A DNA stretch of 20,000 bases, taken from IMG/VR virus record IMGVR_UViG_3300028591_000107, one strand, 5' to 3'. This document shows positions 2,733 to 6,515 of this stretch, piece after piece. The notes beneath the pieces are model-generated. The model had not been told where the DNA came from and searched no databases. It saw nothing but the letters and a program-made list of their open reading frames with translations. The DNA comes from an uncultured virus (IMG/VR IMGVR_UViG_3300028591_000107). Taxonomy: Duplodnaviria; Heunggongvirae; Uroviricota; Caudoviricetes. Within the stretch, counting starts at the first letter, position 1; each line of letters starts with the position of its first letter. The translations under genes and the position numbers were made by a program.

Positions 2733-3074
2733 ATGGAAATTAATGAATATCAAAATCAAACAAAAAACTATTTACCATATCCTCCAGAATTAGGACCATT
2801 TTATAATACTATATGTTTACAAAATGACATAGGTAATTTAAGTAATAAAGTTAAAGAACTTATGGATAATCCTGAGCAAAAAATAGATAAACAATATGCA
2901 TTAAAAATGGCTATTAATTTAGGAGATATTATGGGTCATGTTTCAAATTTGGCAAATGATATTGGGATGACATTGGAAGAATTATGTGCATTAAATTTAA
3001 GAAAGCTTCAAATGGAAAGAGATAAATTCCATTTAAAACAAAATCAAAATGTAAATACATATGAAAATAAGTAA
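2733..3074 (+). CDS. MazG-like NTP pyrophosphohydrolase fold protein with degenerate active site
   Basis: N-terminal INEYQ and LGDIMGHVSNLANDIGMTLEELCALNLRKL match the phage MazG-like pattern. The canonical ExxE/ELGD acidic residues are largely replaced. Confidence 0.75.
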   Translation: MEINEYQNQTKNYLPYPPELGPFYNTICLQNDIGNLSNKVKELMDNPEQKIDKQYALKMAINLGDIMGHVSNLANDIGMTLEELCALNLRKLQMERDKFHLKQNQNVNTYENK

Positions 3075-4005
3075 AACACCTTTTATTAAGTGGACAGGTA
3101 GTAAAAGGAAACAAGCACCATATATAGTAAATCAATTTCCTAAAGAAATAAATACATATTATGAATGTTTTTTAGGTGGAGGTTCAGTTTTACATGAATT
3201 ATTAAATAGAATATCTATAGGAGAATATAAAGTTAATAAAATAATATGTTCAGATTTAAATAGAGATTTAATTGATATATTTAATATATTCAAAAATAAA
3301 GATACTAGAAAAAAATTATTTGATTATTATTCAAACTTACATTATCAATTAATAGATAGAGCAGATATTCCAAACACACCAGATACTATTGAACAAATTA
3401 AAAAATGTCAAACATTATATTATGAAATGAGAAATAAATATAATGAATATATTGAAAATAATATTTATAATGATGAACGATCAATGTTATTTTATTGGAT
3501 AACAAGGACATGTTTTAATGGTCTTATAAGATATAATCCAAAATCTGGAAAATTTAATTCACCATTTCATGTAGGTGGTCGTTTTGGTATTAAACCCGAT
3601 GAACTTCAAAATGTATTTGATAGTTGGGGTTATGTAATGGATAATGTTGACATAGAATTTGTATGTAAATCATATGATGAAGTAATTAAAAATGCTAAAA
3701 AGGGTGATGTAGTATATATGGATCCACCTTATGAAAATACTGGTGGAATGTATTTTTGTACAACATTTGATGTAGAACACATGTATGATGTTATTGAAAA
3801 CATATCTAATAATGGGGCTAAAGTATTATTAAGTTATGATGGATTTAGTGGAGATAAAGATGATAGAACAGCAGATGTACGAAAATGGTATGTACGTCAT
3901 GAATATGTAAATAGTGGGCATTCATCATTTAAGAAACTTAAATCTAAATCATGTGGAACTGCTTCTAAAGATTTGATACGTGATTCGTTATATATGAACT
4001 TTTAA
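3061..4005 (+). CDS. dam: DNA adenine methyltransferase (Dam/D12 class)
   Basis: FIKWTGSK, motif I YYECFLGGGSV, TRD-like FNGLIRYN...FNSPF and catalytic YMDPPY. Overlaps the upstream gene by 14 nt. Confidence 0.92.
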   Translation: MKISKTPFIKWTGSKRKQAPYIVNQFPKEINTYYECFLGGGSVLHELLNRISIGEYKVNKIICSDLNRDLIDIFNIFKNKDTRKKLFDYYSNLHYQLIDRADIPNTPDTIEQIKKCQTLYYEMRNKYNEYIENNIYNDERSMLFYWITRTCFNGLIRYNPKSGKFNSPFHVGGRFGIKPDELQNVFDSWGYVMDNVDIEFVCKSYDEVIKNAKKGDVVYMDPPYENTGGMYFCTTFDVEHMYDVIENISNNGAKVLLSYDGFSGDKDDRTADVRKWYVRHEYVNSGHSSFKKLKSKSCGTASKDLIRDSLYMNF

Positions 4006-4253: not shown

Positions 4254-5078
4254 ATGAAGAATATTGGATTGGTATATATGGCGACATCAGTTTATAAAAA
4301 TTATTTTCCTAATTTTTTGGAATCGATTAAATTTTTATTTCCTGACGATAATAAAACATTATTAATTATTAGTGATGGTTTACAAGAATACAATAATCAA
4401 ATAATTAATAATACAAAAATATATGTTAAAGACGTAGTAGATCTTCCATATCCATTTTTACCTTGTTGTAAATTTAGATTTGTAACAAGATATACAAAGG
4501 AATTTAATTTTGATTTTATTATGAATTTTGATTCAGATACAATCATATTAGAAAAACCTAAAGAGTTTTGGGAATCGCTCAAAATAAAAATGGAAAGTGG
4601 AAAATTATTAATGACATTACACCCACATTATTTATATACACCATATAGAGATTTTTATGAACCATTTATTGTTTCTAATAAAGATAGTATAGGATATATT
4701 GATGCAAATTATATTAATGAACATCGATCTTATATAATGACTAGTTTCTTTGGAGGAAAATATGATATTATAAAATATTTTGATGATAAAATTTATTATA
4801 TGCTTGGTAGAGATATGGATAATCTTAGATGGATTCCACGTTTTCCTGATGAAGCATATATGAATAAATTATATATTGAAGAAAATGTTTTAAACAATAA
4901 TGATAATATTTTATTAGAAAGATATGTAACAATTAATCCTTATATTTATGGAGATTTTCCTGAAAGAAATAATGGAGATATACATACAAATAATTTTCCT
5001 GAATATGATGATACAATTTTTATGAATCAAAAATATGATATATCATTAAAAGAAGATAAAAAAAATAATAATATTTAA
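4254..5078 (+). CDS. Family 6 glycosyltransferase (GT6, ABO/alpha-1,3-Gal(NAc) transferase-like)
   Basis: IGLVYMATSVYKNYFPNFLES, LLIISD, DxD motif (FDSDT), LHP, SFFGG and DEAYMNK follow the order of conserved GT6 blocks. Confidence 0.8.
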   Translation: MKNIGLVYMATSVYKNYFPNFLESIKFLFPDDNKTLLIISDGLQEYNNQIINNTKIYVKDVVDLPYPFLPCCKFRFVTRYTKEFNFDFIMNFDSDTIILEKPKEFWESLKIKMESGKLLMTLHPHYLYTPYRDFYEPFIVSNKDSIGYIDANYINEHRSYIMTSFFGGKYDIIKYFDDKIYYMLGRDMDNLRWIPRFPDEAYMNKLYIEENVLNNNDNILLERYVTINPYIYGDFPERNNGDIHTNNFPEYDDTIFMNQKYDISLKEDKKNNNI

Positions 5079-5583: not shown

Positions 5584-5859
5584 ATGAGCATATTAATAAA
5601 TAAATTAAAAGAATATATTAATAACATCAGAGATATTCGTAAAGAAACGATTAAATCTGATGAAATGAATGAAGAGCAATTATATTATCTGCAAGAAGGT
5701 TTTAGGGAAGGATTATGTATGGCTGCTATGATGTTAGCTGATGAACTTGATGCAGAAATAGGTTATGAAAAATATTTAAATATTGAAGAGAATTGGTGGC
5801 ATACTCACACAGACGAGAACGGTGATATTGGTACCGATGAACGTTTAATTATAAATTAA
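5584..5859 (+). CDS. Hypothetical acidic protein (91 aa)
   Basis: ORF with 3-nt and 2-nt gaps to its flanking genes. Confidence 0.78.
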   Translation: MSILINKLKEYINNIRDIRKETIKSDEMNEEQLYYLQEGFREGLCMAAMMLADELDAEIGYEKYLNIEENWWHTHTDENGDIGTDERLIIN

Positions 5860-5861
5860 TT

Positions 5862-6356
5862 ATGGATATAGGAAGTGGAAATGGTTATCCAAATGCAGCA
5901 TTATCAAATTTTGCTCCGCATCCATTTGAAATAGATGGAGTAGAATGTGCATCTATGGAGGGATTTTTGCAAAGTCTTAAATTTGAATCCGTAGATATGC
6001 AAAGATATGTTTGCACATTAGTTGGTAAAGCTGCAAAGAAAAAAGGTCGAAAAAAGAATTGGCAACAAAAACAAGAATTATATTGGAATGGAAAAACATA
6101 TAAACGAGATTCAGAAGAATACCAAAATCTCCTTAATAGAGCCTACAATAGACTTTACAAAAATGCGGGCTTCTATAAAGCTTTGCAAGCTACAAATGGA
6201 GCTACTTTGGAGCATTCTTTGGGAAAAAACAAGAGTTCCGAAACTGTACTTACACGACAAGAGTTCTGCTCTCGACTTACTCATTTGCGAGACAGAGGAG
6301 AACTTCCGGAATACAATAAACCAAAGCAACCGAAGCAAATGGAACTTGGAATATAA
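5862..6356 (+). CDS. 30.3: NADAR-family ADP-ribosylhydrolase, T4 gp30.3/AdfN-like
   Basis: ALSNFAPHPFEIDG...EGFLQSLK, LYWNG, YKRDSEEYQ, ALQATNG..LEHS and TVLTRQEF..L..LRD parallel T4 gp30.3 (ALSNFAQWPFVMDG..EGFLQGCK..LFWLG..LKHS..TILTEAEF), as recalled. Confidence 0.88.
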   Translation: MDIGSGNGYPNAALSNFAPHPFEIDGVECASMEGFLQSLKFESVDMQRYVCTLVGKAAKKKGRKKNWQQKQELYWNGKTYKRDSEEYQNLLNRAYNRLYKNAGFYKALQATNGATLEHSLGKNKSSETVLTRQEFCSRLTHLRDRGELPEYNKPKQPKQMELGI

Positions 6357-6384
6357 TGCAACATATTTAAACACTAAATTATAA
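6088..6384 (+). CDS. Putative overlapping +1-frame gene inside the NADAR gene (30.3'-like arrangement); alternative TTG start at 6022
   Basis: The +1 frame is open over 6022-6384, with an ATG at 6088. NADAR codon choice avoids +1 stops, and the stop lies 5 nt before the next ATG at 6390. Confidence 0.5.
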   Translation: MEKHINEIQKNTKISLIEPTIDFTKMRASIKLCKLQMELLWSILWEKTRVPKLYLHDKSSALDLLICETEENFRNTINQSNRSKWNLEYNATYLNTKL

Positions 6385-6389
6385 AATTG

Positions 6390-6515
6390 ATGGAGAATTG
6401 GAATTTGGAAGAGAGTAATATGTGCAAATTTGATCATTGTGTATATTATGATTGGGAAGAAAATAAATGTATTAGAAATATTTGTATTAAATTGGATAAT
6501 AATAATGGAAAATAA
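6390..6515 (+). CDS. Cys-rich microprotein (41 aa; not in ORF track)
   Basis: MENWNLEESNMCKFDHCVYYDWEENKCIRNICIKLDNNNGK*, with a C-x4-C-x9-C-x4-C pattern. It overlaps the next start at 6505. Confidence 0.6.
   Translation: MENWNLEESNMCKFDHCVYYDWEENKCIRNICIKLDNNNGK

Follow-up and report, generated by a model that had tools for sequence, protein, structure and literature searches.

An open +1 frame within a gp30.3/AdfN-type NADAR gene of ruminant-gut phages: a candidate lineage-specific overprinted gene

Rz1 inside Rz of phage lambda and E inside D of phiX174 are embedded +1 genes born by overprinting; their expression is proven, and their products carry a lipoprotein signal and a transmembrane helix. 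The closest described system is found in phage T4, where gene 30.3 holds a second gene, 30.3', in its +1 frame, and expression of 30.3' was reportedly described by Zajanckauskaite et al. in 1994. The T4 records MT984581.1 and X53848.1 both annotate the embedded gene, X53848.1 with a ribosome-binding site, in agreement with an earlier sequence-only reading of the DNA studied here. The product of the enclosing gene, gp30.3 or AdfN, is a NADAR DNA ADP-ribosyl-glycohydrolase that, according to the available text of PMC11825919, strips ADP-ribose from guanine in DNA and counters DarTG1/DarT1; it is reported there to need an additional T-even factor for full activity. Our subject is a +1 open reading frame (ORF) of 120 codons within a gp30.3-type NADAR gene on a 20,000-nucleotide stretch from an uncultured virus (IMG/VR record IMGVR_UViG_3300028591_000107; Caudoviricetes), the whole of which we call the window. 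In the clade of ruminant-gut phage genes around the window this frame has stayed open beyond what a calibrated neutral model produces, while its would-be product shows no clade-wide constraint at the protein level. We consider it possible, with a probability of roughly 0.4, that the ORF is a young, accessory, translated and selected overprinted gene specific to this lineage, and we give about an even chance to the +1 frame being no functional gene at all.

Judged by its sequence, the enclosing gene is an ordinary, strongly constrained gp30.3/AdfN-type NADAR. Its product matches Pfam PF08010 along the entire profile (positions 1-138 of 138; 193.4 bits, cut-off 36; E 1.8e-57), which agrees with the identity given to it by the sequence-only reading, and has 39% amino-acid identity to T4 gp30.3 (E 9e-32). 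The ratio of nonsynonymous to synonymous rates (dN/dS) in frame 0 is 0.21 in the clade, and 1,506 phage records contain a relative. Residues E33, K40 and H118 align with T4 E36, K43 and H123, that is, with the catalytic Glu and Lys and the phage-type His of the last strand; in the available texts, E36A and K43A reduce rescue by T4 AdfN (PMC11825919) and the histidine is a hallmark of phage NADARs (PMC11125620). By homology to T4 AdfN, with which it has in common the full-length PF08010 match, the catalytic pair, the family-specific His and a T4-like genome context, the window protein is a predicted DNA ADP-ribosyl-glycohydrolase reversing DarT-type ADP-ribosylation. Unlike T4 AdfN, it comes from an uncultivated ruminant-gut phage of 28% GC and bears a variable C-terminal tail of 20 residues, and its activity is predicted only. 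The match to TIGR02464 is weak (E 3e-4, under the cut-off), and a search by sequence gave no PDB match. An AlphaFold2 model built on 12 close sequences is of low confidence, its predicted local distance difference test score (pLDDT) being only 56.6, with E. coli YbiA (2b3w) as its best, though weak, Foldseek match (E 0.18, template modelling score 0.26).

The window ORF resembles T4 30.3' in being embedded in the same gene family and in the same +1 phase. It differs in that the two sequences are unrelated, in its bounds, and in that 30.3' is annotated as internally translated with a ribosome-binding site of its own. Like lambda Rz1 and phiX174 E it is a small +1 ORF nested in a phage gene, present in one lineage and with no relatives elsewhere, but unlike them its product has no signal, transmembrane segment, fold or protein-level constraint. 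The tools applied to it, namely ORF length under codon permutation, ORF conservation and alternative-frame dN/dS, are those used for published overlapping-gene candidates in the available portions of PMC6188560 and PMC4316641. Accepted overlapping genes usually combine ORF conservation with a lowered synonymous rate; here only the first of these holds across the clade. No paper dealing with an alternative reading of gp30.3/AdfN DNA turned up in our literature search, and the terms 'overlapping' and 'reading frame' are absent from the available text of PMC11825919.

What the sequence-only reading had noticed in the window itself is accurate. Between a stop at 6019 and the TAA at 6382-6384, which sits 5 nt ahead of the ATG at 6390, the +1 frame has 120 open codons, and it contains in-frame starts at TTG 6022 and at ATG 6088, 6163 and 6196. 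None of the 11 NADAR leucine codons over 6088-6356 is TTA (one CTC, six CTT, four TTG), a codon that accounts for 250 of the 459 leucines in the window's other genes. CTT stands ahead of A-starting codons at L91, L130 and L139, and after TTG the next base is always C or G. Local GC rises to 0.32-0.39 over 5700-6399, compared to 0.14-0.25 on either side, and the GC content at third codon positions (GC3) of the NADAR gene, 0.23, is the highest in the window, where other genes typically have 0.06-0.15. The codon use of the gene is distinctive in other ways as well: CGA makes up 32% of the Arg codons in the clade versus 5% in the window's other genes, and CTC and TTG are used for Leu.

For a single sequence the length of the frame is only mildly surprising. 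When the gene's synonymous codons are permuted, a +1 frame open for at least 120 codons arises with a probability of 0.014, and when codons are drawn from the usage of the window, with a probability of 0.003 (20,000 draws each). In a census of off-frame ORFs covering the 20-kb window, the other genes average 0.068 +1 stops per codon, and their longest open +1 runs are 92 and 85 codons in a total of 5,772. From this density and these run lengths, about one such ORF is expected by chance in a large (jumbo) phage genome of several hundred kb, and the single-sequence observation lacks genome-wide significance. The +1 coding log-odds in region B, the part of the gene overlapped by the frame (region A being the 5' part), is -0.27 and exceeds all 399 +1 segments scored in other genes (mean -1.08, maximum -0.46); this high score is in part due to the absence of stops.

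The comparison with relatives carries more weight. We gathered gp30.3 genes from viral, metagenome and genome contigs, taking for metagenomes the best 80 of 184 matches, and counted +1 stops within a core of codons 86-143 in 221 distinct sequences. A core has at most 9 stops, 5 being the commonest count, and 201 of the 221 cores carry one to nine stops, so an open +1 frame is not a feature of the family. The 20 stop-free cores comprise 18 from one ruminant-gut phage clade and two from genes with a GC3 of 0.75 and 0.83; among these sequences an AT-rich gene with a stop-free +1 core occurs solely within the ruminant-gut clade. Elsewhere in the family the stops recur at the Leu and Ile codons 91, 108, 116, 120, 130, 139 and 142. 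The clade is monophyletic, has 77-91% amino-acid identity to the window and falls into two subgroups, one of 15 sequences including the window and one of six around L057. Over codons 55-150 the +1 frame is free of stops in 19 of its 21 distinct sequences, the exceptions being L004 with a stop at codon 78 and L046 with stops at codons 108 and 116, while the other four alternative frames have 2-19 stops in every member.

The open stretch behaves as a unit that moves between genes. Three further genes, L049, L058 and L065, are intragenic recombinants that group inside the clade for codons 1-53 and far outside it for codons 86-142, where they carry 5-6 stops, and this shift places a recombination breakpoint between about codon 54 and codon 86. 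Within the clade, too, tree topologies differ between the two gene halves. GC3 in region B is 0.27 in the open clade, while region A of these genes has 0.14 and closed alleles have 0.12-0.15, and the excess of GC3 and of the associated codons is restricted to codons 55-150 of the open-frame alleles. The recombinants with closed alleles suggest that region B is an exchangeable module and that these phages, at least, can do without the open frame.

Retention of the frame was compared with simulations along the clade tree in which only frame 0 was constrained, changes were made in single-nucleotide steps under the codon usage of the clade, and the residues allowed were those occurring in the family or in the clade. 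Simulated and observed distances agree at the three codon positions (for example 0.18/0.11/0.39 observed and 0.19/0.11/0.39 simulated), as do GC3 and the average stop counts, both for region A of the +1 frame and for frames +2, -0, -1 and -2. The model misfits only in region B of the +1 frame, where 2.1 stops per tip are simulated versus 0.15 observed. Over all the neutral simulations 2-8 open sequences are expected, against the 19 of 21 observed (P 0 to 0.005). When the tree of the region itself is used, the simulated mean is 2.5-6.7 open, and at least 19 are open in 0/400, 0/400 and 2/400 runs from three root sequences. Parsimony gives three stop gains in region B compared to 11.7 expected; in two control clades it gives 4 versus 3.1 and 5 versus 10.5. 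The codon protection proposed from one sequence thus extends to a clade, with the deficit of +1 stops among homologues that the sequence-only reading had suggested looking for, but its companion claim, that the arrangement is held in common with T4, does not stand.

The same reading had named a recent recombinant patch of higher GC as a possible source of the codon bias. GC3 is indeed raised, yet simulations from a GC-rich ancestor (GC3 0.69) leave 4-8 of 21 sequences open and reach at least 19 in 0/300 runs for each of four variants. We rejected the patch as the cause of the bias, and it survives only as part of a rival explanation. The codon states at Leu116 and Leu142 hint at a CTG-type ancestor; polarised counts of weak/strong base substitutions were made by parsimony, which is too biased to show whether GC3 decays.

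In the simulations the stops arise chiefly at sites 116, 120, 142/143 and 108, the last being inflated because the allowed set drawn from the clade alone takes Lys109 from the broken L046 only. The states found at the sites at risk are listed in Table 1; all codon tallies at risk and safe sites are from 20 clade sequences. Codons prone to give a +1 stop (TTA, ATA, and AGA after TTR, where R is a purine) are frequent at matched safe sites and missing at the risk sites. At site 116, the main 'fast' site at risk, the share of TTA among TTR codons is 1/16, compared to 50-100% at sites 14, 36, 53, 73, 108 and 142, and the simulated stop frequency there is 0.52-0.56 of tips from TTG roots (the window, L057) and 0.08 from the CTC root L047. 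Isoleucine sites elsewhere in the gene readily use ATA, as seen in 20/20 sequences at Ile3 and 15/20 at Ile24, and CGA and AGA interchange at Arg48, 82 and 138. Other alleles do hold the stop-forming states at 142/143: the broken L049 has TTA followed by AGG, with the same +1 TAA, and L060 has CTA followed by A.

Table 1. Features of the NADAR locus, with positions in the window and, for codon sites, the states in 20 clade sequences (Y, pyrimidine; R, purine)
Feature	Position	Strand	Details
gp30.3/AdfN-type NADAR gene	5862..6356	+	164 aa; frame 0; Pfam PF08010 Phage_30_3
+1 ORF as first noted	6022..6384	+	120 codons, TTG start; from the stop at 6019 to TAA 6382-6384
ATG-initiated version of the +1 ORF	6088..6384	+	98 aa, MEKHINEIQK...; ATG in 20/21 clade sequences, forced by frame-0 Asn-Gly (AAT GGA)
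Shortest candidate version of the +1 ORF	6196..6384	+	62 aa, putative; keeps protected sites 116-143, site 91 lies upstream of the start
Leu91, CTT before AAT	6132..6134	+	CTT 19, CTC 1 of 20; TTA, TTG or CTA would give a +1 stop; TTA in recombinant L049
Leu116, TTG before GAG	6207..6209	+	main 'fast' risk site; TTG 15, CTC 4, TTA 1 of 20
Codon 120 before GGA	6219..6221	+	the window has Leu TTG, 19 relatives have Ile ATT; ATA 0/19
Leu130, CTT before ACA	6249..6251	+	risk site; CTT 19, CTC 1 of 20
Codons 135-158	6264..6335	+	reduced synonymous diversity, in the window's subgroup only (15 sequences)
Leu139, CTT before ACT	6276..6278	+	risk site; CTT 18, CTC 2 of 20
Leu142-Arg143 pair	6285..6290	+	TTR-CGR in 14, CTY-AGA in 6, TTR-AGA never
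Spacer traversed by the +1 ORF	6357..6389	+	33 nt; first ~13 nt and terminal AAATTAT(A/G)A kept despite differing next genes
Cys-rich ORF	6390..6515	+	41 aa (MENWNLEESNMCKFDHC...); downstream context, outside the overlap
Antisense ORF	6111..6437	-	108 codons; free of stops in the window and L054 alone, the other relatives having 1-8

There is nevertheless much that weighs against reading the open frame as a selected gene. The synonymous-constraint test that had been proposed with the original observation gives an observed/expected ratio of 0.96 over the whole overlap in region B, compared to 1.00 in region A, and no segment falls below a z of -1.5. The ratio of changes that are nonsynonymous in both frames to those nonsynonymous in frame 0 only (dNN/dNS, an OLGenie-type estimate for the alternative frame) is 0.80 (confidence interval 0.54-1.25), against 0.78 +/- 0.12 under a null with frame-0 constraint only. 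Amino-acid identity of the +1 product between subgroups is about neutral as well, at 0.49 versus 0.44 +/- 0.04 and 0.41 versus 0.42. The ATGs at codons 76, 101 and 112 are present in 20, 18 and 20 of the 21 sequences, each dictated by the frame-0 codons, and this phage offers no Shine-Dalgarno motif by which initiation could be judged. A search of 5.8 billion proteins returned only two near-identical called proteins for the +1 product, and AlphaFold predicts one long helix without a fold (pLDDT 70.5, predicted template modelling score 0.29). Five close relatives lack an intact frame (L004, L046, L049, L058 and L065), the last three having exchanged region B for a closed allele. The retention signal also sits on about four sites, such that P for at least 17 open is 0.19 when sites 116, 120 and 142 are ignored, and the limits of the clade and of the segments were picked after inspection of the data.

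Some of the specific proposals about the product fare poorly. The start at MEKHINE is not supported: in L004, which is 91% identical, a stop follows two codons after it. The version from 6196, with an ATG at codon 112 in 20 of 21 sequences, would survive whole in L004, though not in L046. Pfam, PHROGs and NCBIfam hold no family for the product (a hit to Imm9 at E 0.085 was disregarded). The suggestion that it is a partner or regulator of NADAR is not supported; a complex prediction of NADAR with the +1 product scored 0.00, but was run without controls and is evidence neither way.

One segment departs from this picture. In the window's subgroup, codons 135-158 have a synonymous observed/expected ratio of 0.42 (z -4.6), and 0 of 400 simulations are as low; in the other subgroup they are unconstrained (ratio 1.04), which again counts against a gene kept by the whole clade. 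Within codons 135-150 of the window's subgroup, nucleotide diversity (pi) at position 3 is 0.074 versus 0.25-0.29 elsewhere, and at position 1 it is unchanged at 0.092, so the variation lies at frame-0 position 1, which is the wobble position of the +1 frame. Of the four common polymorphisms of the segment, three leave the +1 product unchanged, two of these altering NADAR. The rate of changes synonymous in frame 0 and nonsynonymous in +1 (dSN) is 0.107 for codons 135-150 in this subgroup, versus a null of 0.387, and dNN/dNS is 0.12. Two readings fit this segment, a coding constraint in the +1 frame or an element acting at the nucleotide level.

The second of these is the core of a rival explanation that we hold to be possible but on the unlikely side. 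The frame would be untranslated and opened once by chance, and a few synonymous sites would be held by constraints that have nothing to do with +1, such as a promoter or RNA structure serving downstream genes, or slow multi-step Leu paths from CTT to TTA. It is consistent with the confinement of the constraint to codons 135-158 and to the subgroup that bears a spacer after NADAR, with none where the next gene abuts the NADAR stop, and with the neutral evolution of the +1 product. The segment contains a promoter-like sigma-70 match (GAGACA-17-TACAAT, 6289-6317) and a weak 7-bp hairpin (6265-6296) that is kept through wobble changes, and T4 offers an analogy in its annotated middle promoter PM30.2 inside the 3' end of 30.3. 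CTT is just as invariant at the safe site 148, and freezing codons 115-150 in the simulations brings the retention P to 0.03-0.33, which is at the same time a point against selection on the frame. However, the promoter scan finds 3 matches compared to 4.3 expected from shuffles, and the hairpin shows no compensatory pair or covariation and has no match in Rfam. Codons 112-134, with sites 116, 120 and 130, have no significant synonymous constraint (ratio 0.90), and freezing only codons 135-150 leaves P at 0-0.03. Undiminished variation at position 1 within codons 135-150 is contrary to what a nucleotide-level element would give, and the GC3 of 0.27 across the whole of region B is left unexplained. 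A less probable alternative, and one we consider unlikely, is that the frame is an ordinary long off-frame ORF kept by chance and phylogenetic inertia, with a neutral model that overstates turnover. The modest single-sequence P of 0.003-0.014, the small number of sites that carry the signal, the five broken relatives, the neutral +1 sequence and the post hoc choices in the analysis would all agree with this, and so would the parsimony controls, in which observed/expected is only 0.5 in two places. Against it, the model fits every other frame and region, and the result is robust to the root, to the allowed-residue set and to a GC-rich ancestor. Third positions have also diverged by 0.41-0.45 between the subgroups, while TTG/TTA, ATT/ATA and CGA/AGA toggle at other sites.

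Two further explanations take the frame to be translated but by different histories, and both appear very improbable. The first is the dual coding in common with T4 that the sequence-only reading had favoured, inherited along with 30.3/30.3' and with a product acting as a partner or regulator of NADAR. The gene family and the +1 phase are the same, the open stretches overlap over window codons ~54-116, and an additional T-even factor needed for full AdfN activity has been inferred (PMC11825919, in its available text). However, T4 30.3' has 75 aa and occupies T4 codons 46-121 of 152, while the window frame occupies codons 54-173 and runs past the NADAR stop; the products are dissimilar (BLASTP E 1.9), and in T4 the +1 frame meets stops at the equivalents of window codons 116, 123, 130, 139 and 142, inside the core protected here, in a family where all but 20 of the cores are broken. 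The T4 gene itself is not well kept among the T-even phages (L001, L125 and L128-L134). In a sample of ten T-evens besides T4, 30.3' has an internal stop in five, four Mosigvirus-type phages at codon 80 and L125 at codon 59, and in three more the start differs, with GTG replacing ATG in one and the ATG shifted by one codon in two. With such interruptions and start changes, conservation lends little support to 30.3' being a functional gene. From the available text of PMC11825919, ectopic adfN constructs would contain the embedded DNA and still need the extra factor, and E36A and K43A, which already lower rescue, sit upstream of the 30.3' start. On these comparisons the inheritance from a common ancestor with T4 appears largely refuted. 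The second explanation, with equally poor prospects, is that ribosomes enter the +1 frame by frameshifting, or polymerase by transcriptional slippage, in the A-rich Lys stretch of codons 58-65, so that the NADAR N-terminus is fused to an alternative C-terminus. The frame does open, with its stop at codon 53/54, just 5' of these A-runs, and an A_AAA_AAG heptamer (6047-6053, + strand), phase-correct for a -1 shift, lies inside the Lys-rich KAAKKKGRKK. This motif is not kept, with AAG TTT AAA in 10/22 rows (9/20 clade sequences) and CAT AAG AAA in others; it would favour a -1 shift into the +2 frame, which is closed at codon 80, and the alternative C-terminus is unconstrained.

Under the reading that we put at roughly 0.4, that of a selected overprinted ORF, the 3' two-thirds of the gene, from about codon 55 to codon 164, would be an exchangeable recombination module. 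One allele lineage of this module, in AT-rich T4-like or jumbo phages of the ruminant gut, would have swapped six Leu, Ile and Arg positions, which form +1 stops in most other AT-rich relatives, to non-stop codons, namely CTT at 91, 130 and 139, TTG or CTC at 116, ATT at 120, and TTR-CGA or CTY-AGA at 142/143. Purifying selection against stops could then have held the lineage-specific ORF open. Such an ORF would be young, accessory and overprinted, with an origin independent of T4 30.3', and its translation may start at the internal ATG 6088, 6163 or 6196. The product of 62-98 aa is predicted to be helical, has no relatives and would be nearly unconstrained but for codons 135-158 in the window's subgroup. 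A bolder extension, which we regard as quite doubtful, is that embedded +1 genes have arisen repeatedly in NADAR genes of the adfN type. T4 30.3' and the ORF described here would then be independent, both translated, and the window's product would work together with NADAR or upon it, perhaps as a lineage-specific helper like the one AdfN is reported to need, or as a second anti-defence function carried by the same DNA.

The surroundings of the gene give some idea of the phage. The window is a phage fragment of 28% GC, and profile searches of its proteins identify a major capsid protein of T4 type, a tail sheath of 1,076 aa, a prohead protease, a helicase and a Dam-type methyltransferase. Upstream of the NADAR gene are a PHROG 3317 glycosyltransferase-like protein, a Dam-type N6-adenine methyltransferase and a superfamily-2 helicase (4254-5078, 3061-4005 and 905-2698), possibly further anti-restriction or DNA-modification functions beside the anti-DarT gene. 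The viral contigs behind the close relatives L004 and L135 measure 158 kb and 376 kb, and others are in contigs binned into ruminant-gut metagenome-assembled genomes, all of which suggests that the phage is a large one, T4-like or jumbo, with a gut host. In public runs the full stretch is present in one sheep-gut run, which may be its source, and small shares of it in other animal-gut metagenomes and metatranscriptomes. RNA-library contigs from one sample (X6, X8) span 5870-6503 at ~95% identity and contain no new +1 stop, though transcription is not proven by this; in the non-overlapping tail of nine codons two of the three changes of this allele are synonymous, which is too few to count. No Shine-Dalgarno-like motif precedes any of the 20 listed gene starts in the window, whose leaders are nearly pure A/T, and several window genes are linked by overlapping or abutting stop and start codons; together these suggest a host with initiation independent of Shine-Dalgarno motifs.

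Downstream of the NADAR gene the relatives differ. The Cys-rich ORF in the window has no match in Pfam or NCBIfam but is probably a real small gene, as its homologue abuts the NADAR stop in the L057 subgroup (ATG overlap, TAATG). In other relatives (L004, L040-L054, L135) differing genes follow behind a conserved AT-rich spacer of 24-27 nt (GCAACATATTTA...AAATTAT), and in L047, L048 and L052 the spacer leads into a terminator-like hairpin, GGCAGTAC-TTAA-GTACTGCC, and then a T-rich run. Variation in the spacer and tail over 6357-6389 has no third-position bias. The +1 stop overlaps the next ATG or lies 5-10 nt from it in several relatives (ATGA in L054, L040, L041, L050, L053 and L004). Translational coupling to the next gene was considered and judged not significant, given the differing downstream genes, the hairpin in one subgroup and the overlap of the NADAR stop with an ATG in another. 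The antisense ORF was rejected as a gene since it is specific to the window and meets stops in other relatives; it appears to be a chance by-product of the missing TTA, CTA and TCA codons.

Phages use AdfN-type NADARs as a counter-defence against DarT toxins, a role recognised only recently, and this gives a second frame in the DNA of these genes some practical interest. If the frame is not a gene it would still serve as a calibration example, since an ORF that is kept clade-wide past a careful neutral model while its 'protein' drifts demonstrates that ORF conservation alone is no proof of dual coding. If it is a gene, it would be a warning that adfN deletions remove another ORF too, and a second product encoded in adfN DNA would affect how the reading, deletion and complementation of such anti-defence genes are understood. 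It would then also offer a clean case of a gene arising by overprinting in uncultivated phages of the jumbo type.

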